The position numbers and the translations under genes are program-made. Positions 15,650 through 63,130 of a stretch of DNA of 64,000 bases are shown here, piece after piece (position 1 is the first letter of the stretch; each line of letters opens with the position of its first letter). The notes under the pieces were generated by a model that did no database searches, was not told the origin of the DNA, and saw only the letters and a program-made list of their open reading frames with translations. Source of the stretch: an uncultured delta proteobacterium (lineage in GTDB: Bacteria > Desulfobacterota > Desulfobacteria > Desulfobacterales > SG8-13); contig CAWKCK010000018.1 in NCBI GenBank assembly GCA_963848135.1, positions 696,938-760,937 on the forward strand, given 5' to 3'.

Positions 15650-15665
15650 TGGCACACGCTTTGCT
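15650..15665 (+). promoter_or_regulatory. sigma54 (-24/-12) promoter
   Basis: TGGCAC-ACGCT-TTGCT, a consensus match ~165 bp upstream of 15829. Confidence 0.8.
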
Positions 15666-41954: not shown

Positions 41955-43454
41955 TCATTGGGAGGCATTGCGGCCGAATCCGTAGGCAAATGCGGCCAAA
42001 TATCCGTTGGTGGCTGCGGCGGAGTATACCGCCAGGTCATTGCCGTCCACATCCCCGTCCCCGTCGCTGTCAAAGGGTGATCCGACATGGGTCAGCAACC
42101 AATCGTAGGCGGACATGGCATTCAGCAGACCGTAACCGTACGAGTTGTCCGGACCGGGCGTTCCCAGGTCGACAGCACTCTCTTTCAAGGCCTGAAGCAA
42201 CTGGCTGACAGAAGTGCCTGTCATGGTACCGCCCAGCAGAGCCAGCGCACCGACGACGTGGGGCGCAGCAAAGGATGTTCCGGTTTCAAATATATAACCT
42301 GCGCCAGGATGGGCCGTACAGACGCCAACACCGGGGGCCGTTACATGCGGATAAACGCTGCCGTCATAACTCGACGGGCCGCGGGAACTGAAAGAGGCAA
42401 TATTGAGGTCCCAGTCCACAGCCCCCACGGCGAAGCTTCCGGGATCGTTGGCCGGGCTCACGTCGCCGTCGGTGCCGGAGTTGCCCGCCGCAAACACCAC
42501 CGCGATCCCGGTGTCATTGAGCGTCTGGATATCGCCTCTGAACTCCGTGTTATATGAGCCCTCGGTGCCAATTATATACCATGAGTTGTTGACGATGTCG
42601 GGAAAGTCCGGCGTGTTTGGGTTGCCGTCCGGGTCAAGGAGCCACTCAAACCCCTGGTGTAACAAACTAACCGTTGATTGACGAGCCGCATCGAAAACTT
42701 TGACCGCGATCCACTGGGCACCGGGCGCAACACCGATGGCATAGCCTGAGGCATCTCCACCGACGATGATCCCTGTGACCTGGGTGCCGTGGCCATTATC
42801 GTCATAGGGTTCTGTATTATTTCCGTTGACAAGATCCTTCCAGCTGTTGGATCCGTCGCGGTACCTGGATGCGATGTCGGGGTGGCCGCCGTCGGCACCC
42901 GTGTCCATGACGCCCACCACGCTCCCGGCCCCGTTGTAGCCAAGAGCCCACAGCTCGGGAACGCCCACATCGAATATGTTATCTCCACAATTGATTCCCG
43001 CGGTTCCGCCCAAACCAGCCACGACCGGCTCCGGCGGCAGGGTGACAACCGCATCCAGCGTCACCCGCTCGACCGTAGGCAGGTTAGCCAGCTCATCCAC
43101 CAGCGAAACCGGCACCCGCGCGGCAATGCCGTTGATTATCCATAGCGACAGGGGATTTTTGACCTTGTTATCCTTGAGAAACGTGAGAATATCCTTCTGG
43201 TCGCGATCCTTACGTTCGATGAGGGCCTTAATGATTTTGGAACTGCGAACGGCCTTATCCTTGTCGCTGAAGCTCTTCAGATTCACCGTTTCAGTAAGCC
43301 GGATGATAACCGGCACCTCCGCCTCGGGCGCAAGTGTCCTGACAGCGTCTTGCACGTCCGGTGCCACCACGCCGGCCATTGCAGCACTCGCCGCCTGTAA
43401 GGCGAGCAACAGCCCGGTTAAAACGGTCAGTATCTTTTTCAACATTCTCGGCAT
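41955..43454 (-). CDS. Secreted S8 subtilase with propeptide and a C-terminal dockerin-like Ca-binding motif
   Basis: Catalytic triad MDTG, HGTQVTG and GTSFAAPHV. C-terminus FDSDGDGDVDGNDLAVY...FAYGFGR. Confidence 0.93.
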   Translation of the reverse strand: MPRMLKKILTVLTGLLLALQAASAAMAGVVAPDVQDAVRTLAPEAEVPVIIRLTETVNLKSFSDKDKAVRSSKIIKALIERKDRDQKDILTFLKDNKVKNPLSLWIINGIAARVPVSLVDELANLPTVERVTLDAVVTLPPEPVVAGLGGTAGINCGDNIFDVGVPELWALGYNGAGSVVGVMDTGADGGHPDIASRYRDGSNSWKDLVNGNNTEPYDDNGHGTQVTGIIVGGDASGYAIGVAPGAQWIAVKVFDAARQSTVSLLHQGFEWLLDPDGNPNTPDFPDIVNNSWYIIGTEGSYNTEFRGDIQTLNDTGIAVVFAAGNSGTDGDVSPANDPGSFAVGAVDWDLNIASFSSRGPSSYDGSVYPHVTAPGVGVCTAHPGAGYIFETGTSFAAPHVVGALALLGGTMTGTSVSQLLQALKESAVDLGTPGPDNSYGYGLLNAMSAYDWLLTHVGSPFDSDGDGDVDGNDLAVYSAAATNGYLAAFAYGFGRNASQ

Positions 43455-43549
43455 TTGTCACTCTGGTCCGTAGCGTTGTCTCCGTCAGCGGTATCCGTGA
43501 TCTGAAGGACTTTTTTCGGTACCGGAGAAGTCTTGTTGCCGACTTTTCT

Positions 43550-44020
43550 TTATTCAACAGTGATGTTTTCCAGCCTAAAGTCGCCAATCACCACCGTAAC
43601 CTTATCCCCTGGTTGCACCAGGCGGGTCTTGTTACCAAAAAACATCCAGTAGACGCGGCCCTCCTGAGGCGTATCGGAGCTGCGCAGAGGTCCGACCTTG
43701 GCCGTTACCGGCACCTCCAGGACCTTGCCGCTTTCCTGGTGAATCAGATACGGTTTGGTATCACGTTTGAAGAGCGCCACCGCCTTTTCGGCATCCAGCA
43801 CCCGGTAGCGGAAGTCGACCATGCTACCGGCCGCGGTGGTGCGTACGGCCACGATGTCAACCCCCCATTGTTTCTGCAGGGTGGCCCGCTTATCAGGCCC
43901 GCTTTGCGGACCGGTCGCACAACCGGCCAGAAGGAGCACCAGGGTACAAAAGAGCAGAACCCATACCGTACGCCCTGTCGTCATCAGCTTCATCGATCTC
44001 ATCTCCGCCTTCGGCTTCAC
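43550..44020 (-). CDS. Putative lipoprotein
   Basis: Lipobox LLAG-C and a beta-rich body (MVDFRYRVLD...YWMFFGN). The true start may be 43996 or 43984. Confidence 0.8.
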   Translation of the reverse strand: MKPKAEMRSMKLMTTGRTVWVLLFCTLVLLLAGCATGPQSGPDKRATLQKQWGVDIVAVRTTAAGSMVDFRYRVLDAEKAVALFKRDTKPYLIHQESGKVLEVPVTAKVGPLRSSDTPQEGRVYWMFFGNKTRLVQPGDKVTVVIGDFRLENITVE

Positions 44021-44083
44021 TCCTGACGGGAAGACAGAGCCGGATGCGACTCTGTCTTCTTTTTATCGTAATATTTATATATA

Positions 44084-45199
44084 TTATTGACAGATCGAAC
44101 CAAAGTTCAGAGCAAACACGTCAAGTGCCGGTATCACGCCAGGTCCGAAGATCGCTTCATACCTTTCAAGGTCCGTACCGTCCACGTCCAGGTCGCCGTC
44201 AAAATCACCCGGGCAGGAAACCTGCAGCAGAGCCAGCAGACCGCCTTCGCTCGATGCTCCGGAGACCAGGTGGTGGCTGCGGTCGAAGATCGGGAATGTG
44301 CCCTGTGCCGTCGGATCCCAGAGGGCATCCATCGTTTTGCCCGGGGCCAAATTCACCATGTACTGCTCTTTGGCATAGGGATAAGGATGGCCGTCCTCGG
44401 CAATCACTTTCATGTAAGGACCGTTCAGGATCAAGGGCATGTAAGACTTGAGCCCGATGTTCGCGAAACGGATGAGCGTTCTCGCACCCGGAAACCCTGC
44501 CGGCACCGGTGAAGCGGGTGCATCGAATGGCTGACCGTTGATCAGAAAATACTTCGGGCTGTAGGTCCGGGGTCGCGCCACTTGCAAGGAATCAGGATCA
44601 TTATTCAAAGCCGGGTCGATCTCACTGTAGAGCAGGAGGGCCTCATTATTATAAGCGAATGCTGCACCGGCAGCGGGATCGGGATAGGCCTCACCGGGGG
44701 CATTATCCACGATGATGGCACCGTAGAGCCCCATGGGCACCTGCCGTCCGGGATTGGTGCCACTATGATAAATGAAAGTACCCGCGTTGAGGCCGGTCCA
44801 ACTGTAAATCCCCGGAGTCGCAGGAAACGGATCCGTTTCCGTCGTGAACGACTGGACCCGACCGGTGGGCGGTACGGGTGTTCCCGTTGCGACCTGCCCG
44901 GGAATCATGATCGAGACCGGTACACTTAAGCAATTGCGCAGGTTGATTGTCAGCGATCCGTCGGTGGGCCGCAGCACCGGTCCCGGCGTCCAGGGGGAAC
45001 CAGGGGCGGGGCAGCTACCCGGATCGTCGACAAAGCCCCACATACGGATTTCATCGCCGGCCGTTCCGCCCGGTGGCAACCACTGAGTTTCCACTGCTGC
45101 AAGTTCGAATACCTGGGCAACAGAGGGACTCGCTACAAGAACGGCGCAGATTATCGCCAGCACCGGTAGCATCGCGTGCATTAAAATGGTTTTCTTCAT
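44084..45199 (-). CDS. Two-domain multicopper-oxidase-like protein C (copper ligands largely lost) with a C-terminal dockerin-like motif
   Basis: PGPVL, SIMIPGQ, GTFIYHSG...MGLYGAIIV, YFLING and RFANIG motifs. C-terminus CPGDFDGDLDVDGTDL...FALNFGSIC. Confidence 0.85.
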   Translation of the reverse strand: MKKTILMHAMLPVLAIICAVLVASPSVAQVFELAAVETQWLPPGGTAGDEIRMWGFVDDPGSCPAPGSPWTPGPVLRPTDGSLTINLRNCLSVPVSIMIPGQVATGTPVPPTGRVQSFTTETDPFPATPGIYSWTGLNAGTFIYHSGTNPGRQVPMGLYGAIIVDNAPGEAYPDPAAGAAFAYNNEALLLYSEIDPALNNDPDSLQVARPRTYSPKYFLINGQPFDAPASPVPAGFPGARTLIRFANIGLKSYMPLILNGPYMKVIAEDGHPYPYAKEQYMVNLAPGKTMDALWDPTAQGTFPIFDRSHHLVSGASSEGGLLALLQVSCPGDFDGDLDVDGTDLERYEAIFGPGVIPALDVFALNFGSICQ

Positions 45200-45218
45200 C
45201 TCGTTATCCCTCCTTTAC

Positions 45219-46698
45219 CTAATCTATATCCACATTCCAGCCTTCGATGATCAGCATGGTCAGCATGCCACCAGGGAAGATGTCGAAGTTTGTCAGCTCC
45301 TTTTCCGTGTGGGAATGCCACATGTAGCTGAAGCCGCCGTTGGGGTTGAGACCGCCTTCGCCCGGAGGCAAGGCCCCCATACTACCGAGAAACGGGCTGC
45401 CGCCGTACCAGCCGCCGAAGGCCAGATCCAGTTTCTGGGGCAAAAGGGTCGGGAACATGCTTATCGTGGTCGTCACAGTATTCCCATGGTGTGTCTGTGC
45501 CCGGATCTCCGTATCCGTCAGGAGGGGCCACCCCGGTTTCATTGTCCACCAGATCGGTACAGTCGTGGGGAAGAGGGGGGTCGGTGGCGAACTGGGGGTC
45601 ATCTGATACACCGTAGATGTCCCAGTTGAGGCCCTTGCCGGTCCATTCGAAGATGGCGTCTACGGTCTCCCCCGGCACCGAGTTGATGGTGAAAACCTCG
45701 AAGCTCAGGTCCGGAAAAACTCCAGCCGCGGGTGGCCCTCCGGTGCCCGTATCGAGCAAGCGACCGTCCCGGGCAATGACCCGGGCGTGGTTCCCGTGGT
45801 GGTGAAAGGGGTGCATTTCACGGTTGCCGCCGATGACCCGCATCAGCATTCGTTCGCCCGGATGCATTCGCGGCAGGGAGTTGTAGGGCTGGTAGAGCAG
45901 CAGCGAACCCGCGCTCTCACCGGCATTGCCCATGTTATCCGGGGCTGTCCGCCCATTCATGAACCAATATTTGGAAAAATAATCCGACAGGGCGTCGGTT
46001 TCCATCAGCTCGGGGGCATCCGGCCCGTAAGCGAACACCGTCTCGTGGATCAAGGGGTCCATCTCGCTCAACAGGAACAAAAACTCCCTGTCATATTCGG
46101 TGCCGGGGCCGTAAGCCGTGCGGTTGGTATCCGGATCGAAACCGGCCGGCCGAATGATCAGCGCCCCCAGCAGCCCCATTTCCACCTGCAGTTCGGGGCG
46201 GGTGCCGCTGTGGTACATGTACGTGCCGGGGTGGGTAGCCGTAAACGTGTAAGTTACCGTGCCACCCGGTGCGGCCTCGTTCGTCATTAGTCCGGGCACC
46301 CCCGGATCCGCTGTCTCAACGGTCACCTGTTGACCTGGGAAAACGATCGACACGTTGGGCGTTGCACCAGTGAAAAGGTTCAACTCGTTGGTCAATCGAA
46401 TCTTTACCGTTTGACCCTGTTCGACGATCAGGGTCGGACCGGGGTACTGAGGCCGATTGGCGTTGCTGGGCGGGGCCAATGTGTCGGCGTACCCCCAGAA
46501 AACCACCGATCCGCCGTCAGCGGTGGAGATGGCATTCATCTTGACGGTCAAGTCGAATGTTACGGGATCGGTAGGCGTTCCCGCCCCTGTCCCCGAGATA
46601 CCGTCAATAGCGGCGGTCGCGCTCCCTGCCAACAGGAAAAGGAGCACGGCCGCCCATACGAAGAGGCTATGTGAATTTGAAAACAGTTTATATTTCAT
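45219..46698 (-). CDS. Two-domain multicopper-oxidase-like protein B, with one frameshift near 45458
   Basis: YPGPTL, GTYMYHSG and HPFHHHGNH in one frame. The C-terminus FPTLLPQK...MWHSHTEKE...PGGMLTMLII continues in another frame after ...HDK. Confidence 0.8.
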
Positions 46699-46714
46699 GG
46701 CAGTTCTCCTTTTC

Positions 46715-48010
46715 TTATGGCGAAATTCTGATCTCGGTCAGCATGCCGCCTATACCGTCATCCGTCTCTCCGTTGACCAGGAAATTCAGGTCGGTGGCGT
46801 ACAGAAAATGTGTACCGGACATTCCGGTGGTGTCGAGAATCACATCGTAGGACATGCCCCCGCCGAAGGTCAGCGAATGGGTGGTGTATGACAGGTCTAT
46901 GCCGTCCGGTCCGCGCAGCAGCTTGGCGTCCTTGCCCACCACCCGCATGGGGATTCCCGGGCTGGCCAGGGTAAAATAGCGCGTGACTTCCAGGTTGGAG
47001 AGGCGCAGCAGGACCCTGTCTCCGGCCGCGGCCTCTATCAGGGCATTTACCTTTTGGGTACTGAAACCATCAAGTGGTCTGGCCTCGGGCGGTGCAGCCG
47101 GCCCGACCGGAGCAACCGTGTCCGGATAGCCGCGGCCGTTGATCATGGGGTAGTCGGCACGCATCAGGGCAAAGGGCAGCGGCTGTGTGTTTACACTGGC
47201 ATCATGGAAGTCCGAGTCGAAACCGCCGAGTTGGAGGACAAACTCGACATCGTAAGCGGTGGAACCGTCCCCGTCGTTGTAAACATAACCTGTGGGGCCG
47301 GGGCCGCCTTCCTTGCCGGCGACGGTGTTCGGATCACCGCCGAAGCCGGTCTGATTTTGGATCGGGTCCACGTATAGACTCCCTAACATACCCATCTGCA
47401 TGTGTTCGGTGGCCTCCACATGGCAGTGGTACATATAGGTGCCGGGATCGTTGTTCAGGTAGTAATAGGTCAGGCTGGCCCCCATCTTGATGGAAAGACC
47501 GCTCTCCGGCAGTCCGTCATAGATGTTGGAGGACTGGGGAAAACCGTGGTAATGCACCGTGTGGGGGTCGAAAAGATCCGGTCGGTCCACCATACCCACG
47601 TTGCTCAGGGTCAGCCAAAACACATCGCCCTCGCGTAGGGCTATCTGCGGTGCCGGAAACTCGTGCGATAATTGGCCATCGATGAACACATTGTCCGCGG
47701 GAATGCCGGTGACATCCGAAAACCCGAACATGTACATCGGGCGTCCATCGCCCATGGTAATATAACCGTCCCCCGACGACAGGTGCATGCATTTGACATT
47801 GGGATCAAAGTCTGGGTTGGGATCTCCAACCAGGATCCCATCAGGATTGGGATCCGGCAGGGTATGAGCCTCATAAACGGGATCCGGAACGGCGTCCCCG
47901 TCGAGATCCCCCTGACACTGGACCGAGATGGCCGCCCCGACTGGCAGGGTGCCGAACATCACCACCAGTAGCAGTAGGAGCGGCAGAAGGTAGCGCCTGT
48001 ATGTTTCCAT
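46715..48010 (-). CDS. Two-domain multicopper-oxidase-like protein A with a complete type-1 Cu site
   Basis: HTVHYHG and GTYMYHCHVEATEHMQMGM in domain 1. No HxH motif in domain 2. Confidence 0.9.
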   Translation of the reverse strand: METYRRYLLPLLLLLVVMFGTLPVGAAISVQCQGDLDGDAVPDPVYEAHTLPDPNPDGILVGDPNPDFDPNVKCMHLSSGDGYITMGDGRPMYMFGFSDVTGIPADNVFIDGQLSHEFPAPQIALREGDVFWLTLSNVGMVDRPDLFDPHTVHYHGFPQSSNIYDGLPESGLSIKMGASLTYYYLNNDPGTYMYHCHVEATEHMQMGMLGSLYVDPIQNQTGFGGDPNTVAGKEGGPGPTGYVYNDGDGSTAYDVEFVLQLGGFDSDFHDASVNTQPLPFALMRADYPMINGRGYPDTVAPVGPAAPPEARPLDGFSTQKVNALIEAAAGDRVLLRLSNLEVTRYFTLASPGIPMRVVGKDAKLLRGPDGIDLSYTTHSLTFGGGMSYDVILDTTGMSGTHFLYATDLNFLVNGETDDGIGGMLTEIRISP

Positions 48011-48083
48011 GGGTTGACTCCTTTCTATTCTGTTTCAGCCGCACCGGGGATGGCCCCCGGTTGCGGCGGTTTGGTCTCTACTG

Positions 48084-51000
48084 TTACGGTATCTGTAATT
48101 CGTCGGCACCCCAGTCGGAATTTCCCCCGGCGGGGAAAGGCCGCGGCTCATTGTCGATATCCACGGAAAGTGCGCCAGGGACGTTCGTGGGGCCCGCATT
48201 CTGAGCCGTCGAAACGCCAGTGATGTGGTAGTCGCTGCACATCCCGGGATTACCGTCATCAGGAGTTGCGTCGTCACACAGGGTCAGCGGGCCGAAACGC
48301 ACCCGGATGAAATTGCCGCCCTCGTCGAACGCCGCCGGTGTCGAAATCAAGGTTGTCGGCTCGCCCGGCAAGAGGGTTTCACCACGCCCGCCGTTAAAAT
48401 ATTCCATTACAAACGCCGGGTTGGCGATGCCAGCCTCGTCCTGATTGTTGGCGACGTAGGTGCACTGAGGTTGATCCTCAAATCGACTCGTCAGGATATT
48501 CCTTTGCGGGTTGAGACATCCCGCCGTACCCAGGACAGCCAGGTCGTCGTACGGGTTCGCCGCTGGAATCAAGGAGTACGGCGGGGCGGCTGGATCGGGT
48601 GGATCGGTTGGGGGAGTTTCGCCGTAGTAGAATGAGCGATTGTGCCAGATAATGTTTTCTGTCAGTACAGGGTCGGGATTATCCGAATTGCAAAACCGGC
48701 TCGTACTGCCCGCATCGGCACAAGCCGCCGCCACTGCCGGACCCAATCCAAGAAGACCCAGAGCCGGGTTATCCTGGCTGTGGGCGCGTGCCACGATGCC
48801 GGCCGGTTGCGGGGTGGAAGTAAATGTGGCAAGGTCGATGGCGTTGCCCGACGTGGCCGTGCTGTCGTTGTTGGCCACCACGTTGAAGCGTATCCGCGCC
48901 TTGGCGACATCTTGGAGCGAAATGCCGCCGCCGGCCAGAGCCGCTACATTGTTGACGATCATGTTGCTGTAAATATTAACAGCTTTCCAACTGCCCGGAG
49001 CGCCGCTCACGTCCTGGCCGTTGACCCGACTCAAGCGGATGCCGCCGCCGTCTCCGACGCCGGCCGAATTACTCTGGATCAAGTTGCGGAAAATATTCAC
49101 GTTGCCCGTCCCCGGGCTCAGGGTGTTGGCCTCCAGGGGCAGCTTACCGCCGACGAAAATACCGCCGCCGCTGACGGTCAGCCCCTGGTTGAACTGTTCG
49201 TTGAAAAGGATCTTGTTATCGGCGATAAGGCCGTTATTGCTCTCCCCAAAGTGGCCGATACCGGCCCCGTCTCCCAGGGTGAAATTGCCGCAGATCCAGT
49301 TCGCGCTGACGTTGTACCTCGTCGAACCGGTGCACAACGACACCCCGCCGCCGGCGCCGCCCAGGCCGCCGTTCTGGGTGATCTGGTTGTGGTGAATCCT
49401 GACATTATCATTGTCAGCATCCGTATGGATCTCTAATTGGGTATCCGGGTCGATCGTTGTCAATTCGGGGTGGCCCAAACGCACACCACCGGCGTAGAAT
49501 CCGCTGTTATTCAGGATAATATTGTTACCAATATCCATGAACTTCGCATAACCGTTGGCAATGATGCCGCCGCCGGTGCTCGCGCCGCGGATGGTAAAAC
49601 CGTCGATCCGCGCGCCGCGATTAACCCAAGTTGACTGGTTTCGAGCGAACCGGTTGGGTCCGGTTGCCTTGGCCAGCACCAGCACACCGGCCCCCTCCTC
49701 GGTAAACAGGGTGCCCGGTTCGACACCGCCGAAGGCCTGCTCCTGACCAGGCAGCAGATCCACCTCAAGGTCTTCGACCAACTGCCTGAGTTTCTGACGC
49801 CAGAATTCCAATTTCTCCATGGGCGTGTTAATGGCGTTGATGGTGACCACGCCCGGCCCCCAGCCCTGGAGCTGGACGGGTTTGTGCATGATGACCATTT
49901 CTTCGTAGTTGCCGGGTCCCACCAGGATGAGGTTGTTGATCCCATCGTTGAACCCAGCCGCATCGATGGCCTGCTGAATCGGCCCGAGGCCATCGGCATT
50001 CGGCGGCCCCGGTGTCACCTGTACGACGTTTGAACCCGGCCGCAGACCCACCTGGACCGTCAACCCGGTGATGGTGGTCTGGTTGTTGTCGCCGCGGGTC
50101 ACCATCAACTGTTGGCCGCCAGCGTCGAGCCCGGCCGGTATCGTGGCCGTAATGGTGGTGTTCGACCAGGTCACATCCAACGGATTCAAGGTGACATCGC
50201 CGATCGACACGGTCCCCTCAGTACCGCCGAAACCGTAATCGCGGTTGATAGTAGTGGGCTCGGTACCACCCACGCCGTCATAGATTGGGTTCGGTACGGA
50301 GACTGACCCCATGGACGTAATGTCGATTGTCTGCCCGCCCAAGGTGTTGGGGATGAAAGGACCGCCGCCGACACCGTTGTCGACCGTTGCCATGCTGATC
50401 CGCGGTGTCCCGTCCGGAAACTCGCAGTCGAGCGGGGCCTGGTCGGGCCCGGCAAAGGCCGCCGAGGGAACCACAGGGGTATCAAGATACGTGGTCGCTC
50501 CGGGCATGTACTGGAAAGTGTAGCAAAACGTGCTGTACTGCGGGTTGAATAACGGATCGTCAATAAACATGCCCGGATCGGCTGGATCGGGTTTCCGCGG
50601 GTGGTTCATGCAGGTGGTCAGCATGTTGGGTGACATGCCGCTGGGTTGCGGCAGGTTATTGGTGTAGGTGGAGGGCACCAGGGCGTTGAAGCGCCCGTAC
50701 TCGTCGGAATAGGTGCGTGAGATCTCCCGGCCGGTCCAGTCCTGAATCGATATCGGCATGAAGGGTGGCGCGAACTTCTCGCCGAACTGGGGCGAGGCGG
50801 GATCGAACTCGTTGGCGGTGTCGTCCAGGATACCGCCGACGATGTGGCCCGCTATCGGCACCTCGGTGAACAGGAAGAAATCGGCCGCAGCGTTTTGAGC
50901 GGGGTTAAGAAAGACCTGCTTGCGGTCGCACAAAGGCCTGATGGTGCCACCGAAGTCGGAGCCGACCGGCTCGCCCGGAAACAGCGTCAGCTCAGCCGGA

Positions 51001-53558
51001 ACCGGATGGTCGTCACCCACACATTCCGGTGCCACCAGTAGCGGGCTGGGGGTGTATTCGTCGCCGAAATCGACGTTGCGGTCTTCCTCCTTAACGATCT
51101 CGTAACCCGGAGGGGTTTTGACCTCGACGATATAAAACCCAGGTTTCATGACGCCATAATCGGGATTTCCAGTGCCGTCGGGTTGTTGAATCCAATTAGG
51201 TATCACACCTCCAAAATCTTCCGAAATGCTGTACTCGGGTCCGAAGGCGTAGCCGCCGTCGAACACCCCCGGTCGCACCTGGTTCCAATTGCGCATGCCG
51301 TCGTAGCAGTCGGTGGCCTGACCCCGGAAGACATAAGGATCATCGGTGCCGCTGCCGGCGTTGACCCCGTATTGGCAGTTTGCGGGCAGGCTGTCGTCCC
51401 AGCTGTCGGTCCAGGTGACCTGAATGGCGTCATTTTGATCGAAAGTCGCGTTAGCTGGAACAGAATTTTCGAAATCCTCCGGTCCCATAGCGCCACCGGC
51501 GGACCATTCAAAAGGATAGTTGTCCACATCGGCAAGCTGGATGCCATTTGGCGAAACATCCTGGTCTAGGATGTTACCGGCCCCGTCGCTCTGGTACAGG
51601 TTGATCTGCACCCGCGGGATGCCGGGCTCCCAGGGTTCGACCGCCGCGAGGCGCGGGTCGTCCTCGGCCCGGGTGGTGGCATAGTAGACCACGCCTGAGA
51701 CGCCGCCGGTTTCGCTGAATTCGTAGAGCTTCTTGCCCCATATCATGACGCTGGTCTGCCCCAGGAAACCCTGGAAGCCTTCGACCAGAGCCGGGCCTCT
51801 CTCGATCCGGTAAAGATCCGTATTGGGTGCCATCGGCCACCAACTATCGGGATCCTCTGGATTGCCTTGGACCTGGGGGGTGAGTTGACCGCCGAATGTC
51901 CAGTAGCTCGCCGGGCCATCCTGCGGAATCGGGCCGCCGTCGTCCACGACAACCATCACGCCGGTGGCCTTGAAACGCGCGAAATCAACCTCGGCCGTCA
52001 GCCAGGAAAAAAATGGAAAAACCTGGTCGAAGGGCGCGAAACCATCGCCATCGGTGGGAAACGATTGGTAGAGCGTGCCGTCGCGCCAGCGCAGGTTCAC
52101 CGCCTGTTCGAGAATCGGCGGCTGCGACGCCAATCCGGTTTCGCCCGGATTCCATAATCCGTTGCCGTCAAGGTCGTTGAAGACGTGATTCTCCAGGCGG
52201 GTGAACCACTGAAAGACCCCAATATCTCCCAGGTCACAGTCAGGGCTGCACGTACCATCGGGGTTGACCGTTATACCCTGAAACGCAAAAACCACATCGA
52301 GATTGTCGTCCCACACCATGAGCTGGTAGTCCCCCGGCGGTACATTGGGGATCGTAAATCCGCCTCCGTCCGTCCGCGCGGCGTAAATACCGTTGGAAAC
52401 CGCTGCCAGGCCGGCGTTGTCGTTCAGGCCGACCCAGGGTGTCGTGTGGGTCAAAGGGGCGCCCAAGTTGAAGGCACCACCGGCATAGGGGGGGCGGGAA
52501 AGGTGGTTATTGACCACGCTACCTGTGATGCTGGCCGTCGTATCGCCGGCAGGAATGTCGTTGAACGGTTCGACAAAGCCAATAAAGACATGGTAGCCCG
52601 GCGGCCCGAACTCGGCGAAAAACGGCGGCTCGTTGGCCTTGACCCAGGCGTCGATCACTTTCGTGCCCTCAATGGTGGAGGTCTGCTGCCAATTGGAACC
52701 TGCCGGCGGCGACGCGAGGATGCCGTACTTGCCCGGGGCCAGGTTCTTGATCGTGATCAGCCCGGTGGCATCGGTGACCAGGGGTTCGAAACCGGTCACG
52801 TTGCCGGCCGCATCATATTGGGTTCCCAGGGGGTTACCGAAGGCGTCGAAGAGCTGTTCACCGGCCGATGCGCCGTAACGGCCGCCGGCGTCCTCCACCT
52901 TGATCTGGAAGCCCGCCAATCCCGGCTCCGTCGCATCGGGCGCGTTGTTGATCGGCTGGGTGTCTTTGAATATGAAAATGGTGATCTGGGCCGTGGGTAT
53001 CGGGTTTTGATTGAGGTAGACGGCAACATCTCCGGTGTCACTGCCTTTAAATTGGCCACCGCCGATGCTGTAGGTACCCGGATCCTTTGGCAGGACCGAA
53101 ACGAAGTAGTGTTTGGCGGGGTTCAAACACGGAAAATCGGTAACTGGATCCGTGCAGACCGGCGGAAAGGCTGTCGCATCATCCCCCTTGGCCACCACAG
53201 GCATGTAGCTGCGGTGAAAACTGGTTGAAAGGGGGTACGGCTTGGGAGTGACGGTTGGCGGGACATTTTTCGAGGGGTTATCCAAATGGTGCCAGTTGGG
53301 ATCGACCACCGGAAAACCGTCACCATCCAGTTGCACCTGGCCGCTGGCATCACGCTGAACGTGATAGGTCGCGTCCTCTTCGATCACCCAGCGGTAGGTT
53401 GTGACGGGTGACAGGGATCCGTCCTTATCGACGCCCGTAACGGTCAGTGTCGGCACCGCCATCACTGTGGCGGCAGAGCACACCAAGAAAATGGAGACGA
53501 GCAGCACAAGCCAAAGCCTGCCAACCCCGGTTGAATTTATGTTGATCACCTTCTTCAT
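48084..53558 (-). CDS. Large (1824-aa) secreted protein with SdrD-B/Cna-like, IPT/TIG-like and parallel beta-helix regions
   Basis: RBS aaggagg and signal peptide. VFNDLDGNGLWNPGETGL, NLAPGKY, WSNTTITATIP, IQQAIDAA...GPGNYEE, IDGFTIRG and repeated N...GGGI motifs. Confidence 0.85.
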   Translation of the reverse strand: MKKVININSTGVGRLWLVLLVSIFLVCSAATVMAVPTLTVTGVDKDGSLSPVTTYRWVIEEDATYHVQRDASGQVQLDGDGFPVVDPNWHHLDNPSKNVPPTVTPKPYPLSTSFHRSYMPVVAKGDDATAFPPVCTDPVTDFPCLNPAKHYFVSVLPKDPGTYSIGGGQFKGSDTGDVAVYLNQNPIPTAQITIFIFKDTQPINNAPDATEPGLAGFQIKVEDAGGRYGASAGEQLFDAFGNPLGTQYDAAGNVTGFEPLVTDATGLITIKNLAPGKYGILASPPAGSNWQQTSTIEGTKVIDAWVKANEPPFFAEFGPPGYHVFIGFVEPFNDIPAGDTTASITGSVVNNHLSRPPYAGGAFNLGAPLTHTTPWVGLNDNAGLAAVSNGIYAARTDGGGFTIPNVPPGDYQLMVWDDNLDVVFAFQGITVNPDGTCSPDCDLGDIGVFQWFTRLENHVFNDLDGNGLWNPGETGLASQPPILEQAVNLRWRDGTLYQSFPTDGDGFAPFDQVFPFFSWLTAEVDFARFKATGVMVVVDDGGPIPQDGPASYWTFGGQLTPQVQGNPEDPDSWWPMAPNTDLYRIERGPALVEGFQGFLGQTSVMIWGKKLYEFSETGGVSGVVYYATTRAEDDPRLAAVEPWEPGIPRVQINLYQSDGAGNILDQDVSPNGIQLADVDNYPFEWSAGGAMGPEDFENSVPANATFDQNDAIQVTWTDSWDDSLPANCQYGVNAGSGTDDPYVFRGQATDCYDGMRNWNQVRPGVFDGGYAFGPEYSISEDFGGVIPNWIQQPDGTGNPDYGVMKPGFYIVEVKTPPGYEIVKEEDRNVDFGDEYTPSPLLVAPECVGDDHPVPAELTLFPGEPVGSDFGGTIRPLCDRKQVFLNPAQNAAADFFLFTEVPIAGHIVGGILDDTANEFDPASPQFGEKFAPPFMPISIQDWTGREISRTYSDEYGRFNALVPSTYTNNLPQPSGMSPNMLTTCMNHPRKPDPADPGMFIDDPLFNPQYSTFCYTFQYMPGATTYLDTPVVPSAAFAGPDQAPLDCEFPDGTPRISMATVDNGVGGGPFIPNTLGGQTIDITSMGSVSVPNPIYDGVGGTEPTTINRDYGFGGTEGTVSIGDVTLNPLDVTWSNTTITATIPAGLDAGGQQLMVTRGDNNQTTITGLTVQVGLRPGSNVVQVTPGPPNADGLGPIQQAIDAAGFNDGINNLILVGPGNYEEMVIMHKPVQLQGWGPGVVTINAINTPMEKLEFWRQKLRQLVEDLEVDLLPGQEQAFGGVEPGTLFTEEGAGVLVLAKATGPNRFARNQSTWVNRGARIDGFTIRGASTGGGIIANGYAKFMDIGNNIILNNSGFYAGGVRLGHPELTTIDPDTQLEIHTDADNDNVRIHHNQITQNGGLGGAGGGVSLCTGSTRYNVSANWICGNFTLGDGAGIGHFGESNNGLIADNKILFNEQFNQGLTVSGGGIFVGGKLPLEANTLSPGTGNVNIFRNLIQSNSAGVGDGGGIRLSRVNGQDVSGAPGSWKAVNIYSNMIVNNVAALAGGGISLQDVAKARIRFNVVANNDSTATSGNAIDLATFTSTPQPAGIVARAHSQDNPALGLLGLGPAVAAACADAGSTSRFCNSDNPDPVLTENIIWHNRSFYYGETPPTDPPDPAAPPYSLIPAANPYDDLAVLGTAGCLNPQRNILTSRFEDQPQCTYVANNQDEAGIANPAFVMEYFNGGRGETLLPGEPTTLISTPAAFDEGGNFIRVRFGPLTLCDDATPDDGNPGMCSDYHITGVSTAQNAGPTNVPGALSVDIDNEPRPFPAGGNSDWGADELQIP

Positions 53559-53668
53559 CTTGTGTCCTCCTTTCATGAAGGAAAATTTGACGTCAACTTG
53601 TCTGGTGACGGATATCGACCCGAATCATTATTCATCAGGGTTCTCGACTTAGTATTCGATACTGAATA

Positions 53669-53684
53669 GGCAATTTTCATACCA
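53669..53684 (-). promoter_or_regulatory. sigma54 promoter of the large-protein/MCO operon
   Basis: Minus strand TGGTAT-GAAAA-TTGCC, with CCCA-N3-TGGG palindromes at 53786 and 53846. Confidence 0.75.
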
Positions 53685-53901
53685 CAATGTGTAGCGGTAA
53701 CATTGGTGATTGATTTCAAGATGTTAGGACAATGACGGTGGATTTTGGCCCATTCTTGTCGACCGTATCCCCTTCGACGTTGCCTCCCAATTTGGGAGGC
53801 CAATGTTAAATTATCATTTAATTATAATCGTTTAGGTTAACATAGCCCACATTGGGATGATGTCTCCCGACGTCTATTTGCGACCGCGAAGATCAGCGTC
53901 T

Positions 53902-54252
53902 TTACTGCGCGAGAAATTGACATAGAACAGCCGCCTGTTCGGCCGTCAATTCGCTGAAAGTCAAACCGCAAATCCGGATGTCCTGGCCCGTGAATGAGCG
54001 CTGCTGCGAGAGGTCGCTGATGTCGTAGATCAACCGGCAGCAGACGGACGACAGCACTGCACCGTGGGCATTGCCGAAAGCGATGTCTATCAGCTTCCAC
54101 CCGTCCGGTGATACCGACCCGTGCATGTATTCCGCCTTCAACCCGCCCAAGCTGATATCTCTGACGGCAGCGAAACCACCCGAATACCGATCTATGGCGA
54201 ACAATCCTTTCTCAGACGGGAAGTACCGTCTGTGAGCCCGCCTTTCCGTCAT
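53902..54252 (-). CDS. PilZ-like single-domain protein
   Basis: ERRAHRR (RxxxR) and DISLGG (DxSxxG) motifs. Confidence 0.75.
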   Translation of the reverse strand: MTERRAHRRYFPSEKGLFAIDRYSGGFAAVRDISLGGLKAEYMHGSVSPDGWKLIDIAFGNAHGAVLSSVCCRLIYDISDLSQQRSFTGQDIRICGLTFSELTAEQAAVLCQFLAQ

Positions 54253-54394
54253 TCTTTCTTTCCCCGTGGCCCAATGGAATGGACTCAAGTTGTCCAATTT
54301 GGTATTCAATGCCGCGAATGGACATAAGGCCCAATGCTGACCGGCGGCCAGCAAGCGATCTTTGTTAAATGGGTTTCAATCGAAAAGGTAGGAG

Positions 54395-54410
54395 AGCAAA
54401 AGATGTGCCG
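54395..54410 (-). promoter_or_regulatory. sigma54 promoter of the PilZ-like gene
   Basis: Minus strand CGGCAC-ATCTT-TTGCT, with upstream palindromic sites at 54510 and 54571. Confidence 0.7.
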
Positions 54411-54645
54411 AATAATGTTAATTTGAATTAATACAATGTTTTCAGAAAATTACAGATTAGAGCCAGATACGAAACGGGATATGCGCCGCGGCGCACGCTA
54501 AGAAGCTCTCCCATTACGGGGCGCCCAGATAAAATTAATATTAATATTTCAGTCAGTTGGAATGAAACCGGCCATTGTGGGACGGTGCGCTTTAGCCGCT
54601 CATTGTGGGGAGAACGCCCGTGGGCGACGATCGGCCCACAAAACA

Positions 54646-54687
54646 CAACCGGGCGGTCATCGGAAAACCGATAACCGCCCGGTTGTA
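54646..54687. terminator. Long hairpin downstream of the PEP-CTERM genes
   Basis: acaaccgggcggt-c-atcgg aaaa ccgat-a-accgcccggttgt. Confidence 0.5.
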
Positions 54688-54900
54688 TGTGTAAGCTGGT
54701 TCTCGCGCTTCTTTATTGACCCAAAATCTTTGAACCAGCCCTGTCGATATATGGGGGCCTTATAATTACCTTTGAGTTCTCTCTTGCTATTTCGCGAAGA
54801 CGGCGTAACACTATTCCCTAAGTCTTTAATTCACTTGTAGTCGACCTAATCCACTGGATTTGATGCCTCACACTGCCCTTGTTCCACTCCACAAATCGAC

Positions 54901-55563
54901 CTATCCGTAAAACTTCCGCCTCACGGCAGCGAGGCCCAATAACCCCGATCCGAGCAGAAGCATGGCCGGGGGCACCGGTACCGGACTCCCGGCAATACCT
55001 TGTAAGGCGAACTCGTGATTCTGAAGCTGACCCGCCACGTTGATCAATCCCGGTGCGGTGAACAAGATGCTTTCAACGGTTACACCGCCGATAATGAGTG
55101 CGAGCTCACCATTGTCACCGGCTTCGCCTAAATTTTGATCGGCTGCAGCTAAAAATGCTACCGTATTGCCCCCATCCAATTGATAGAACCCACGTTCCGT
55201 ATAGCCATTCTCATTAAAGAGATCGGCGATATAGATGGTATCCAATACAAACGGTTTGGAGAAACTCAAGCGCAGATACTCGGAACCCTCGATTTCATCC
55301 TCTTCGTAGCTATACTGCACGCCAAAACCATCTATGTTGTCCCACCACAGAGACGGCTGAAAGACCGGGTCTGGGGGACCGGGCGTCAATGTAAGATCGA
55401 CACCGCCGATATCAATTGTAAACGAAGGTAAACCCAGAGCCGGACTAAAATCCAGAACAGGGGCCGGACCGTCATCGGTGAAACTGATGACAGCGGCCTG
55501 AACACCGGTTGTCAGGAGCAGTATCCCCATAACAATCAGGAAGATTTTTTTCATTTGCAACAA
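54901..55563 (-). CDS. PEP-CTERM/VPLPA-CTERM surface protein
   Basis: Signal peptide and C-terminus VPVPPAMLLLGSGLLGLAAVRRKFYG. Confidence 0.9.
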   Translation of the reverse strand: MLQMKKIFLIVMGILLLTTGVQAAVISFTDDGPAPVLDFSPALGLPSFTIDIGGVDLTLTPGPPDPVFQPSLWWDNIDGFGVQYSYEEDEIEGSEYLRLSFSKPFVLDTIYIADLFNENGYTERGFYQLDGGNTVAFLAAADQNLGEAGDNGELALIIGGVTVESILFTAPGLINVAGQLQNHEFALQGIAGSPVPVPPAMLLLGSGLLGLAAVRRKFYG

Positions 55564-55616
55564 CTCCTTCCCGTATCAATTAGGAACTCCAACAGTAAAT
55601 GCATTTTGTTCACCAA

Positions 55617-56192
55617 TTAGCTCCTCACCCGTCGGCGGATGCCCACCAGACCCACCAGACCCGCACCGAGCAGCAGAACGGTGGGGGGGATAGGGACGAC
55701 GGCGCTAACGGTGATATCACTGCCTTGATTTAATGGCTGAAAGGGTACGCTGGATCCGTCCAGCCAGTTAAAAGCATTAATCTCTATGGCGGTACTTGAC
55801 ACAGCTTGGAAAGTTAGCGTAGCAAGATTATAATCGCCAGCAGGATGGGGAGGCTGGTTAAAAGGTGGGAAGGTCAAATTAGCAAAATTAAATTGAACAA
55901 AATCTTGCGTTGCATTAGATCCTACGGCAGCTGTTGCTTGACCCCAATTAGTACTATTTGGGATAGCAGTTACCAGGCTCAAAGTTCCGAGGTCCCATAG
56001 AACTTGAACATTACCGCCAGCTGCAGTTGGAAATTCTATAGCTTCTACGTCTATCGTGAATATTTCGCCTACGAATACTGTATCGGTAGCAGGTAAAGAA
56101 GCCACTGTCGTCGCCGCACTCGCAGAGCCGATGGTTAATAAAGCAACCACGATTACTAATGATCCGTAAAGTAGTTTTCCAAAATTTCTCAT
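55617..56192 (-). CDS. Cohesin-like domain protein with a VPLPA/PEP-CTERM anchor
   Basis: VFVGEIFTIDV...GGNVQVLWDLGTLSL...GDYNLATLTFQAV, followed by VPIPPTVLLLGAGLVGLVGIRRR. Confidence 0.8.
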   Translation of the reverse strand: MRNFGKLLYGSLVIVVALLTIGSASAATTVASLPATDTVFVGEIFTIDVEAIEFPTAAGGNVQVLWDLGTLSLVTAIPNSTNWGQATAAVGSNATQDFVQFNFANLTFPPFNQPPHPAGDYNLATLTFQAVSSTAIEINAFNWLDGSSVPFQPLNQGSDITVSAVVPIPPTVLLLGAGLVGLVGIRRRVRS

Positions 56193-56258
56193 TTTTATAT
56201 CCTCTCTTTTAATTAAAAAATGTTACTTATTATGTAATAACAATTCTGTCTGATAGAC

Positions 56259-57083
56259 TTACAACGGGGGCGCGGTTGGACAATTAATACGTCCGAAGTC
56301 AGCGCCCGCGGTTTGAAGATCCAATATATCTACTGTACCGTCTCCGTTGAAATCCGAAAGGCATATATTACCAGCATTATTACAGTCAATTCTCCCAAAC
56401 TCAGCACCAATGGCAGTAAAATCTAAGATATCCACAGTGTTATCACCATTCAGATTGCCCTCGCACGCATTATCGCCGACGTAAACCCAGCTCAGATCGG
56501 CAGGCAGACCAGCCGGATCTTCGACGGTTCCGTTAAGGGTGACAAAGTTGTCGAAAGTGTCATCTGGATCATTGGGGTGTATCTCGGCAAGGGCGACATT
56601 AAGAGAAGTGCTGCCATTTCCGACCGTATTAAAATCGATCCACCCCAAAAGAACAGTGCCATTCAGACCGTCGGTGGTGGTTCCCGGCCCGATCAGTCTT
56701 CCGCCTTTCATGGTCACACTGCCCGGGGTGCTGGTATCCACTGCCGGAGTCACGTACTGATCATCTTCGGTCGCCGGGTTGCCATCCCCATCCATGATGA
56801 AACCATCGGTAAAGCTGATATTTTTGGAAGCACTCGCTATCGATAGTACGGCCGGATCGAAAGTAACCAGAATCCCCATGCTGATCAAATCGATGGCATT
56901 ATTGCCAAATATCTGAACGCGCAATTTGTTCGTTGCCCCGGTACTATCCGTTCTCGAAGCCTGGTCCGGAGTTATTGAAATATTCAGTGCATACCCGGAT
57001 CCTGCAAACAGAAAAATGACGGTGGTAAATACCACAAAACCCCTTGATAAACACTTCAATTTAAACTTTTCCATGGCCCTCAT
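56259..57083 (-). CDS. Secreted cohesin-like + dockerin-like protein
   Basis: ISMGILVTFDPAVLSI...GTVLLGWIDF..VGNGSTSLNV, then two repeats GNLNGDNTVDILDF and SDFNGDGTVDILDL. Start 57083 or 57074. Confidence 0.8.
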   Translation of the reverse strand: MRAMEKFKLKCLSRGFVVFTTVIFLFAGSGYALNISITPDQASRTDSTGATNKLRVQIFGNNAIDLISMGILVTFDPAVLSIASASKNISFTDGFIMDGDGNPATEDDQYVTPAVDTSTPGSVTMKGGRLIGPGTTTDGLNGTVLLGWIDFNTVGNGSTSLNVALAEIHPNDPDDTFDNFVTLNGTVEDPAGLPADLSWVYVGDNACEGNLNGDNTVDILDFTAIGAEFGRIDCNNAGNICLSDFNGDGTVDILDLQTAGADFGRINCPTAPPL

Positions 57084-57430: not shown

Positions 57431-57446
57431 AGCAATGCGTGTGCCA
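57431..57446 (-). promoter_or_regulatory. sigma54 promoter upstream of the cohesin/dockerin genes
   Basis: Minus strand TGGCAC-ACGCA-TTGCT, with palindromic sites at 57546 and 57607. Confidence 0.8.
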
Positions 57447-62800: not shown

Positions 62801-63130
62801 CGGAACAACATCTTGTAATGGTTCAATTCCGGAGTTTAAAAGGTTTTCGAAATACCAGATGGACCTGTCAAGATAATCCCAGACATCCTCAGTGACCGGG
62901 TTCACACCGTCCTCTAAAATTTCATAAACCCCGAGCCGGGTGGCGTTGGCATCAAGCCGGATCTCCTTTACGGCGGACAGCAGTGGCGAGTTCAAGTCAT
63001 GCAGGCGCTGGCCGTTATAATACCCGTAAAGGATGAGGACCAGCATGCTTAGCCCCGCAAGGCTCACCAGCAGGTTTATTCGCCGAAGGACGGTTTTGCC
63101 ATTATCGTTTTTGTAATCTGACGTTTTCAT
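59813..63130 (-). CDS. Membrane sensor histidine kinase (2 TM, PAS-PAS-GAF-PAS-HisKA-HATPase)
   Basis: IAHEINNP, QVLLNLIVNA, DNGCG, FDPFYTTK and GTGLGL motifs, with PAS and GAF signatures upstream. Confidence 0.95.
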   Translation of the reverse strand: MKTSDYKNDNGKTVLRRINLLVSLAGLSMLVLILYGYYNGQRLHDLNSPLLSAVKEIRLDANATRLGVYEILEDGVNPVTEDVWDYLDRSIWYFENLLNSGIEPLQDVVPLRNKGIQNQIDILKSRFAELKDHTTQQAGVLWQKDDISAALAIYDQKFTDFLQQIDRLESDIIRVMRKDQTLFRFSHASLALFCIFLMITVWLTIRRYERRRSEYVLSLKDTNAQLEKEVSERKKIEHALKESENLFRTVFETIPDSIIVSRLQDNTIVDVNNGFLELTGFSKNDVIGQTALDLTLWEDNEKRDRFVSILESRRYVHNFESRFQMKDGNVKTALLSVNAIELKGEPHFITVARNVSELKEAEMAMRESEERFRGLFESAADKIYLLDLEGRILVSNPAATELLGYSETEMRGCRLANFVDPASRDYFDHAFSGLPDNGDLMCEVNMESKGGRRVTVDCSASVIRDEKGTVDCIVIFQKDITDRKFAEQKRRAAHDFLKIANRQTEMQPMLADFVAATKKLTGCQAAAIRILDEEGHIPYAFEEGFGAAFCEVENFLSVKKDQGMCVQVVRNDIDPELPNFTRMGSYFINDFSQVASGNEKGLEHCLRNTCNRFGFRSLALIPIRLGEHTLGLLHVADRRGKLFALEVVEMLEAAAMQLGATIRRLRAEEALKSAYQVLEDRVLERTIELSLANENLKAEIAVRLQAEERLRESSTMMQTLIDGINDALILVDHDMRLRMLNRRAAELYGMTSYEAVIGQQCFNANGAVGACTSCEVPQAVERGQTLVFERTGLRDDKTLEQVSVYPVKEKDSEIGGAIVRISDITEERRFERQLIQSEKMASLGILVSSIAHEINNPNSFVTFNIPILREYLEALIGIADAYAEKQPEFELFHMTYAEFRKDVFNLVDNIEHGASRISTFVSNLREFSQSNGDRQKVMLELPVVLDKVLSICRSQIKKHVKTFETDLPANLPPVYADEYSLEQVLLNLIVNAVQAMDKKDSSVLLRASSGRNWRDHTIIEVIDNGCGIDQKTRERIFDPFYTTKSAAEGTGLGLYVCHNLIESLGGRIDVETRPGEGSTFAVYLPDRDRRKKPRPAVAAVETLPT

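Follow-up and report, generated by a model that had tools for sequence, protein, structure and literature searches.

A putative two-tier cohesin–dockerin tether beside a copper-oxidase and protease operon of an uncultured delta proteobacterium

The assembly of proteins through cohesin–dockerin pairs, including the use of adaptor scaffoldins and anchored single cohesins, is textbook knowledge for cellulosomes, in which the type I dockerin consists of two repeats of about 22 residues, each made of a calcium loop and a helix. Such assembly is well understood only in the cellulosomes of Gram-positive bacteria; many non-cellulosomal modules are known besides. Here, we describe a locus in a 64,000-nucleotide stretch of the genome of an uncultured delta proteobacterium of the order Desulfobacterales (assembly GCA_963848135.1, contig CAWKCK010000018.1; the whole stretch is referred to as the window). 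The locus comprises a three-gene module, A-B-C, encoding a protein with a cohesin and a dockerin (A), a cohesin-fold protein with a PEP-CTERM-type tail (B) and a second PEP-CTERM protein (C), and a neighbouring operon for a copper oxidase and a protease, two products of which end in short dockerin-related tails. We hold with moderate confidence that it encodes a two-tier, non-cellulosomal cohesin–dockerin tethering system; the module probably tethers the enzymes of the copper-oxidase/protease operon outside the cell.

Cellulosomal scaffoldins, namely Ruminococcus flavefaciens ScaE/ScaH (PDB 8ajy) and Acetivibrio cellulolyticus ScaA/ScaB/ScaC, belong to the top structural matches of both A and B. 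As in those systems, a putatively cell-anchored single cohesin, an adaptor with a cohesin and a dockerin, and dockerin-bearing enzymes can be recognised here, in this case from sequence and models. Unlike in those systems, the anchor would be of the PEP-CTERM/exosortase type of a double-membraned bacterium and not a sortase LPXTG signal or an SLH domain, the cohesins lie under the threshold of the Pfam model, the plugs of the cargo have one calcium loop, and the cargo is devoid of glycoside hydrolases and carbohydrate-binding modules. The preliminary description of the region, made from its sequence, had called the complex cellulosome-like. This fits the cohesin and dockerin parts but not the cargo, as neither a glycoside hydrolase nor a carbohydrate-binding module was found among the tail-bearing proteins of the genome. 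Cellulosomes are defined by glycoside hydrolases with dockerins, by a scaffoldin with several cohesins and by a cellulose-binding module. These are not parts of the system, and A and B have one cohesin each.

In R. flavefaciens, cohesin-binding dockerins with a single loop were described in 2025 (PMC12270676). According to the part of that report considered here, the group-2 truncated dockerins of strain FD-1 have one calcium loop and bind cohesin, and in one case the dockerin is joined to a cohesin-like module; PDB 9gvb was among our fold matches. Group 2, as described in the same part, corresponds to the C-terminal part of group-4 dockerins, whereas the tails at our locus keep loop 1 together with the final helix and lack the middle, second loop included. 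Phylum, cargo and anchor differ as well.

The principle of cohesin–dockerin pairing is already known, and proteins of this kind appear in lists of adhesins from related bacteria. In anaerobic methanotrophic (ANME) archaea, cohesin and dockerin domains are abundant and their non-cellulosomal function was stated to be unknown (PMC5244752); that paper mentions cohesin, dockerin and exosortase, each separately. In the syntrophic sulfate-reducing partners of ANME, cohesin/dockerin proteins are presented as putative adhesins that are highly expressed and show signs of inter-clade transfer (PMC10553843, as far as its consulted parts go). The likeness to our locus lies in the hosts, which are non-cellulolytic anaerobes including Desulfobacterota, in the patchy and transfer-prone distribution, and in the presence of S8 proteases among the adhesin-type domains. 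That study treats the proteins as adhesins, and in its consulted passages and 12 of its 17 supplementary files it describes no adaptor, one-loop tails or copper-oxidase operon; in the same 12 files, no mention of PEP-CTERM or exosortase was found in connection with its adhesin table. The non-cellulosomal cohesin of Archaeoglobus fulgidus (PDB 2xdh) was a fold match of both A and B. With XrtD/VPLPA-CTERM sorting (NCBIfam TIGR04152, TIGR03370) the locus shares VPLPA-CTERM among the best signals of B and C, as well as a better exosortase that is XrtD with an EpsI part; it differs in that the signals score below the curated cut-offs, the XrtD-like gene lies in two frames and the sorted domain is a cohesin. 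In the literature, we found no paper joining cohesin, dockerin and PEP-CTERM, no report of an exosortase link, a two-tier adaptor or these one-loop tails, and, judged by titles and abstracts, no fusion of a dockerin with a multicopper oxidase. What the locus adds is the two-tier adaptor, the swappable one-loop tail, the location of this tail on a non-catalytic oxidase subunit, and a comparison of the operon with and without it.

Cohesin and dockerin parts of the module

Translation of the region gave ten open reading frames (ORFs), every one on the minus strand and placed as in the preliminary description, and all motifs quoted there were present in the translations. The view of the region as one co-oriented block stands as to orientation, but the block contains at least two transcription units: the A-B-C operon and a separate oxidase operon (E, MCO-A, MCO-B, MCO-C, lipoprotein and subtilase). 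Gene A, previously thought to start at 57083, starts at M18 (57074) in the recorded gene call (P0001), within an ORF that is open back to 57125.

The dockerin-like tail ascribed to A proved to be a dockerin by profile. Its two repeats, GNLNGDNTVDILDF...FGR and SDFNGDGTVDILDL...FGR, each show a calcium loop, as in type I dockerins, and A reaches the Pfam Dockerin_1 model (PF00404) with 24.1 bits against a cut-off of 22.9, being the sole match to this model in the 6.03-Mb genome. A profile of the A family (16 members) matched solved dockerins in the PDB, with a best E of 4.9e-9. The cohesin is recognisable by its predicted fold. The AlphaFold2 model of A (mean predicted local distance difference test score, pLDDT, 77.1; predicted template modelling score 0.74) gave 82 Foldseek matches in the PDB at E<=0.001, and all of the matches listed were cohesins or cohesin–dockerin complexes. 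The model of B (pLDDT 79.5) gave 110 matches at the same threshold, with cohesins in the majority and a few integrins, TTHA1873 and AvmM. The nine-stranded beta-sandwich of cohesins is present in both proteins, on predicted models. The earlier designation of A and B as cohesin-like is therefore upheld by predicted fold but not by Pfam Cohesin, which matches neither.

The sequence of B gave further evidence of its relationship. A phmmer search with the B domain among 1.84 billion representatives found five proteins besides B itself; two of them (P0036 and P0037) align exactly on their Pfam Cohesin stretches, and another (P0034) contains five cohesins. The remaining two, with LCCL repeats (P0033) and DUF11 repeats (P0035), were discounted as repeat-driven. 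A profile of the B family matched PDB sequences at chance level only.

The tails of the two enzymes, DSDGDGDVDGNDL...FGR in the subtilase and GDFDGDLDVDGTDL...FGS in MCO-C, are related to the dockerin of A, as had been proposed. The pattern C.GDFD.DGDVDG.DL...L..FA..FG...C is common to nine tails taken from the genome under study and from related loci, and they hold a single 12-residue loop of the form D-x-D-x-D-x-D-x-D-x-x-D. A profile of these nine sequences aligned to the dockerin of the A family with an hhalign probability of 94% (E 1.4e-7), such that the first loop and helix of the tail correspond to repeat 1, the last helix and the FG..C end correspond to the end of repeat 2, and a gap of 22 columns covers the second calcium loop. 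As the second loop is deleted and the rest aligns to A, the tails are truncated one-loop dockerins and not canonical members of the family, and the caution that each enzyme tail shows one clear calcium loop was correct and finds its explanation in this structure.

Further tail-bearing proteins, anticipated in the preliminary description, were found elsewhere in the genome with a hidden Markov model (HMM) of the tail. There are five: a metallophosphoesterase with fn3 domains, a second subtilase with fn3 and Laminin_G_3 domains, a 201-aa protein, a GDSL lipase with the module close to its N-terminus, and a 1461-aa RHS-repeat protein with a two-loop dockerin-like module close to its N-terminus (L028, C4:233507-237892). 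The family is large; in a big protein collection, at least 739 proteins among 8000 scored belong to it, and the best 120 listed members include six subtilases, five proteins with RHS repeats and three copper-oxidase-like proteins, one of which is the MCO-C of the window. A Pfam dockerin annotation is present on 4 of these 120.

The C-termini of B and C consist of V-P-[IV]-P-P, followed by a hydrophobic segment and a cluster of R/K; in B, the translation reads VPIPP, hydrophobic stretch, RRR. C, an addition to the preliminary description, belongs to the A-B module. It had no relatives among the compared loci, and its neighbours in the ESM Atlas were generic PEP-CTERM clusters only. The VPLPA-CTERM model found B and C with E of 0.013 and 0.0014, respectively, below its cut-off. 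The absence of an exosortase from the 64-kb window, noted before, was confirmed; two are encoded in the genome (PF09721, 228.5 and 145.1 bits), which agrees with the proposed anchoring, while the signals of B and C remain sub-threshold. The better exosortase is XrtD-like with an EpsI part and lies in a glycosyltransferase cluster (L029 8704-10558, contig C4), and the second one (L030) is XrtC-like, below cut-off, and adjoins an IS110 transposase. An IS3 transposase follows the XrtD-like gene. Five of the seven PEP-CTERM-like tails found in the genome with a simple pattern are on contig C18, including three of the VPIPG..WLLG type (C18:593098-594177, 601264-601980 and 880092-880973).

Gene order and operons with and without the tail

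Homologs of A were compared in 11 loci of species-representative genomes, mostly metagenome-assembled genomes of Desulfobacterales together with Desulfobacter latus, and in metagenome contigs. In nine of the 11 genome loci (the exceptions are L004 and L010), the gene immediately downstream of the A homolog encodes a PEP-CTERM protein, as it does in 5 of the 10 metagenome loci whose downstream sequence is about 600 bp or longer; L045, a duplicate of L001, and L038, L039, L046, L049, L050 and L053, which are too short, were left out. The B-like proteins encoded downstream form several sequence groups. Pfam Cohesin (E<=0.01) matched five of nine of them, the whole of the largest group, with E from 2.5e-5 to 7e-3 and one above the cut-off; the other four had no match. 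Neighbours with a tail or a dockerin occur in L001, L005, L006, L007, L011, L039, L042, L043, L051 and L054, and they include subtilases (L006 and L007) and FG-GAP/CARDB, DUF6345 and DUF7901 proteins. Locus L006 belongs to a cultured relative, Desulfobacter latus AcRS2, and combines an A homolog and a cohesin-PEP-CTERM gene with a tailed subtilase and a tailed CARDB/FG-GAP protein. The A family itself is patchy: of 400 other genomes in the sample of the order, 4 had full-length matches (E<=2.4e-22), and none of eight other genomes of the same genus had one.

The oxidase operon offered a comparison of orthologs with and without the module. Orthologs of MCO-C (E<=1.4e-36) were found in eight of the 400 genomes sampled, and the alignments of all eight end at residue 321-340 of the query, before or at the start of the tail. 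Their own C-termini are different: three continue with about 300-385 residues of cadherin-like repeats (a label given by reading the sequence), one with another repeat, two with a glycine run followed by CFI[NH][ST]LL[DN], and two stop at once. In one of these genomes, G299 (L031 3807-6140 and 6889-8781), the subtilase and MCO-C orthologs share a repeat module whose last 40 residues are near-identical; the same two proteins carry the tail in the genome under study. Full-length A was not found in any of the eight tail-less genomes, either by a single-protein or by a profile search. Tails kept where the cohesins are missing, a pattern that would speak against the proposal, were not seen, the tail being absent from MCO-C in all eight operons without full-length A.

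The one other genome that has both the module and the operon is G401 (locus L008). Here, an A homolog is followed by two PEP-CTERM genes beside the regulator–E pair, and the MCO-C ortholog ends in the same type of tail. Hence, MCO-C is tailed in two of two genomes with the module beside the operon and in none of eight without full-length A, which we take as a pattern and not as a statistic because the genomes are few and related.

The two glycine-run ends mentioned above belong to the MCO-C orthologs of L017 (G330) and L019 (G156), in which 9-14 glycines precede CFINTLLD or CFIHSLLN; these ends might act as a C-terminal signal for sorting or lipidation that has so far gone unrecognised.

Proposed wiring and its rivals

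The arrangement that we favour would work as follows. A sigma-54 promoter, probably with the adjacent sigma-54 activator, would drive A-B-C. An exosortase would sort cohesin B via its PEP-CTERM-type tail, and the dockerin of the secreted adaptor A would plug into B. The cohesin of A, the most conserved part of the system, is predicted to receive one-loop tails. The cargo would then be MCO-C and the subtilase of the neighbouring operon plus the five tail-bearing proteins encoded elsewhere, held outside the cell by contacts that may depend on calcium. The tail would serve as an exchangeable localisation module, in whose place operons without the adaptor carry other C-terminal modules or none.

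The pairing of the adaptor cohesin with an enzyme tail, which the preliminary description had proposed, was examined by complex prediction with residues 28-200 of A (16-row alignment), the MCO-C tail (9-row alignment) and one calcium ion. The interface score ipSAE was 0.89 (median of three runs) against 0.02 for the best control; in the calibration of the test, 116 of 157 solved complexes attain the mark, as do 2 of 215 mismatched pairs. The custom alignments and the riding calcium ion are outside this calibration, and a pass supports binding without showing it. Contacts agreed between runs to at least 91%, and the pLDDT of the partner was at least 85. The predicted interface includes I64, S65, M94, P110, G124-L127, F174, N176 and F177 of A and holds 13 of the 41 conserved columns of A against 8.3 expected (hypergeometric p 0.034). 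The preliminary interpretation is upheld in part, namely in its architecture and in the contact of adaptor and enzyme, on the strength of prediction and co-occurrence.

For the contact between A and B we turned to conservation among the nine A proteins that have a B-like neighbour, leaving out L009, whose N-terminus is cut, and L004 and L010, which have no such neighbour. The A cohesin is conserved (58% mean identity) and about equally so within (63%) and between (57%) the groups of B-like proteins. The A dockerin shows 61% identity within and 39% between these groups, and the B-like domains are highly divergent (23% mean identity). From these patterns, the conserved tails match the conserved socket of A, and the variable plug of A matches the variable socket of B, an argument that is suggestive of binding of the A dockerin to B. 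This same evidence bears on a reading in which the parts are the same and wired otherwise, the tails entering B or both cohesins while A chains with itself, caps or competes, as a matrix component or a regulator. Self-chaining is possible because a socket and a plug occur together in A; the tails and the A dockerin have their closing helix and FGR..CP end in common, the complex prediction covers the single pairing of the A cohesin with the MCO-C tail, and there is a subfamily of A (L039, L040, L042 and L043) without an adjoining PEP-CTERM cohesin. However, the conserved tails suit the A cohesin better than the divergent B-like cohesins, the A dockerin varies with the groups of B-like proteins, and the high score of the A cohesin with the tail comes with an interface enriched in conserved columns of A, so that we regard such rewiring as unlikely.

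In another reading, A, B and C would be matrix or cell–cell adhesins without a tie to the oxidase operon, and the tails would be calcium-binding stabilisers or an export or sorting tag recognised by other machinery. It draws on PMC10553843, in whose consulted parts the cohesin/dockerin proteins of syntrophic sulfate-reducing bacteria are listed as putative adhesins with high expression, on the patchiness of the A family and on the size of the tail family, which sits on very diverse proteins. The distribution of the MCO-C tail, present in the two genomes with the module beside the operon and absent from the eight without it, speaks for a tie between the two units instead, as do the homology of the tail to the dockerin of A itself, its predicted docking on A, and the sigma-54-type elements that both units have beside one activator. 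We therefore give this reading a small chance, slightly below that of the rewired one. That the likeness is meaningless, with generic beta-sandwich PEP-CTERM proteins, chance aspartate-rich ends and accidental adjacency, is very improbable: Pfam Cohesin misses A and B and the fold matches of B include a few non-cohesin beta-sandwiches, but the sequence matches of B fall on Pfam cohesin stretches, five B-like neighbours match Pfam Cohesin, the tail family has its many members with a conserved pattern, the gene order recurs, and the controls of the complex test stayed at 0.02 or lower.

Several observations weigh against the two-tier tether itself. Pfam Cohesin (PF00963) matched neither A nor B at E<=0.1 and nothing in the whole genome at E<=1, and an NCBIfam scan of A and B for cohesin gave no match. 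The enzyme tails did not match Pfam Dockerin_1 even at E<=10. With the PEP-CTERM HMM (PF07589), B and C scored 15.1 and 18.9 bits, both below the cut-off of 20.7, and the XrtD-like gene is read in two ORFs that overlap and correspond to profile positions 1-231 and 278-486. The breaks in this gene and in MCO-B are either assembly errors or signs that parts of the system are inactive. In 7 of the 21 A loci with room for it, no PEP-CTERM gene lies directly downstream. Dockerin-like matches occur on other large proteins in three of the eight tail-less genomes, and a weak match of cohesin type was found in G299 (E 2e-3). The complex score may reflect memory because solved cohesin–dockerin complexes exist, and it is silent on specificity because the controls were unrelated proteins and not non-cognate dockerins or cohesins. 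The co-variation is limited by the linkage of the genes, the relatedness of the genomes and the definition of the groups by B. Finally, the scheme requires a route for cargo and adaptor across the outer membrane.

If the binding is confirmed, the two-tier tether would explain how an anaerobe with a Gram-negative envelope keeps a copper oxidase fixed outside the cell together with proteases and other hydrolases. It would also establish a tag of about 40 residues that is missed by current domain models, and it would provide a small orthogonal plug-and-socket pair for surface display. The locus is a compact case with a natural control, since the same oxidase operon occurs with and without the tag, and the tag occurs together with the socket genes. 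We put forward, tentatively, a wider idea: that double-membraned bacteria have a widespread, unannotated tether made of an exosortase-sorted cohesin, an optional adaptor and a mini-dockerin tag of about 40 residues, which is swapped on and off secreted enzymes, replacing the cadherin-like repeats or other ends found in orthologs, and which here would hang a copper oxidase, via its non-catalytic subunit, and a protease on the surface or matrix under sigma-54 control.

Oxidase operon, regulation and neighbouring features

Coordinates of the features of the locus in the window
Feature	Position	Strand	Basis
PAS/GAF sensor histidine kinase	59813..63130	-	Pfam PAS, GAF, HATPase_c
Sigma-54-dependent response regulator	58042..59409	-	Pfam Response_reg, Sigma54_activat, HTH_8
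Putative sigma-54 -24/-12 promoter of A-B-C (TGGCAC-N5-TTGCT)	57431..57446	-	Exact pattern match
Gene A, secreted adaptor, cohesin and two-repeat dockerin, 271 aa	56259..57074	-	Pfam, profile, AlphaFold2 model
A cohesin-fold domain, residues 28-200	56475..56993	-	AlphaFold2 model and Foldseek
A dockerin, residues 203-267	56274..56468	-	Two calcium-loop repeats framed by four conserved cysteines
Gene B, cohesin-fold domain and PEP-CTERM-type tail, 191 aa	55617..56192	-	AlphaFold2, Foldseek, phmmer
Gene C, second PEP-CTERM protein, 220 aa	54901..55563	-	PEP-CTERM HMM 18.9 bits; ESM Atlas
Terminator-like hairpin closing the A-B-C unit	54644..54687	-	20-pair stem with 12 G-C pairs, then T run
Putative second element of sigma-54 type, with one mismatch, preceding D and E	54395..54410	-	Pattern match
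Gene D, PilZ-like small protein	53902..54354	-	Pfam PilZ E 0.044, 14.5 bits, below cut-off
Gene E, secreted protein heading the oxidase operon, 1830 aa	48084..53576	-	Ig-like domains (Pfam)
MCO-A, cupredoxin protein	46715..48010	-	HxxHxH and HCH...H...M copper motifs, Pfam
MCO-B, cupredoxin protein	ORF 45382..46698; with shifted-frame C-terminus 45219..46698	-	HxxHxH, Pfam
MCO-C, cupredoxin-like subunit carrying the tail	44084..45199	-	Pfam, ortholog alignment
MCO-C tail, one-loop truncated dockerin, 45 aa	44087..44221	-	Tail alignment, hhalign
Small lipoprotein-like protein of the operon	43550..44020	-	Orthologs after MCO-C in 8/8 comparator genomes
Subtilase (S8) of the operon	41955..43454	-	Pfam Peptidase_S8, E 1.1e-45
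Subtilase tail, one-loop truncated dockerin, 41 aa	41958..42080	-	Tail HMM, tail alignment

A multicopper oxidase has four histidine-rich copper motifs (HxH, HxH, HxxHxH and HCHxxxH...M), and at this locus such motifs are divided among subunits. Those of MCO-A are kept in all five orthologs and the HxxHxH of MCO-B in nine of nine. The frame of MCO-B breaks near 45440-45470, and a conserved C-terminus with WHSH, which is present only in the shifted frame, runs on to 45219, 19 bp before MCO-C; the break is either genuine or due to a homopolymer error in the assembly. Across its orthologs, MCO-C keeps neither His nor Cys and thus no conserved copper ligands. The preliminary description counted MCO-C among the tail-bearing enzymes; the tail is on this subunit and not on the catalytic ones. 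Protein E has orthologs with 44-53% identity in L031-L034 and is fused to MCO-A in L032 (10523-17446, 2307 aa) and L034 (2745-9125, 2126 aa), which speaks for a joint complex of E with MCO-A. In our reading, E, MCO-A and MCO-B make up a multi-subunit copper oxidase, to which MCO-C belongs as a subunit without a catalytic role. Orthologs of the subtilase are present in L031, L033, L034 and L020.

The order kinase, sigma-54 regulator, E, MCO-A, MCO-B, MCO-C, lipoprotein and subtilase recurs in L031 and L033, with no gene between regulator and E. Since it is the same there without A-B-C, the oxidase operon is an independent conserved unit, and in the genome under study the A-B-C operon sits between the regulator of the oxidase operon and its first gene. 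Orthologs of the kinase head the operon in L031, L033 and L038. Those of the response regulator are directly upstream of E in L031 and L033 (57% identical) and upstream of A in L038 (86% identical), and a metagenome contig with an 89% identical A keeps the order kinase, regulator, A.

The candidate promoter of A-B-C, TGGCACACGCATTGCT, is about 360 bp upstream of the start of A on the same strand and is one of two exact matches to the sigma-54 pattern in the window. The other exact match to the -24/-12 consensus is at 15650-15665 on the plus strand. No exact match was found upstream of the homologs in the other loci; with a less strict pattern, elements preceded the A homolog in three of nine scanned loci and E in L008, the chance level of this pattern not having been estimated. 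Gene D lies between the two units. Its match spans the whole PilZ profile, with RxxxR and D-x-S-x-x-G motifs seen by eye, and a 32% identical relative adjoins the operon in L033; this hints at a possible control by cyclic di-GMP.

The oxidase operon (41955-53576) has a G+C content of 59%, A-B-C of 47.4% and the genome of 50.5%. The operon is in the top 1.2% of the 2.5-kb windows of the genome, which suggests that it may have been acquired from elsewhere. The idea that A-B-C is the compositional outlier was rejected, as its G+C content is ordinary for this genome and it is the oxidase operon that deviates. Downstream of the region, a CusB-like protein with a heavy-metal-binding domain is followed by AcrB/CusA-like fragments (Pfam). 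The pump gene at 37518-39012 on the minus strand is in pieces, of which one of 371 aa corresponds to positions 1-313 of the 1021-position profile and one of 212 aa to positions 372-410, and this fragmentation may be another frame break.

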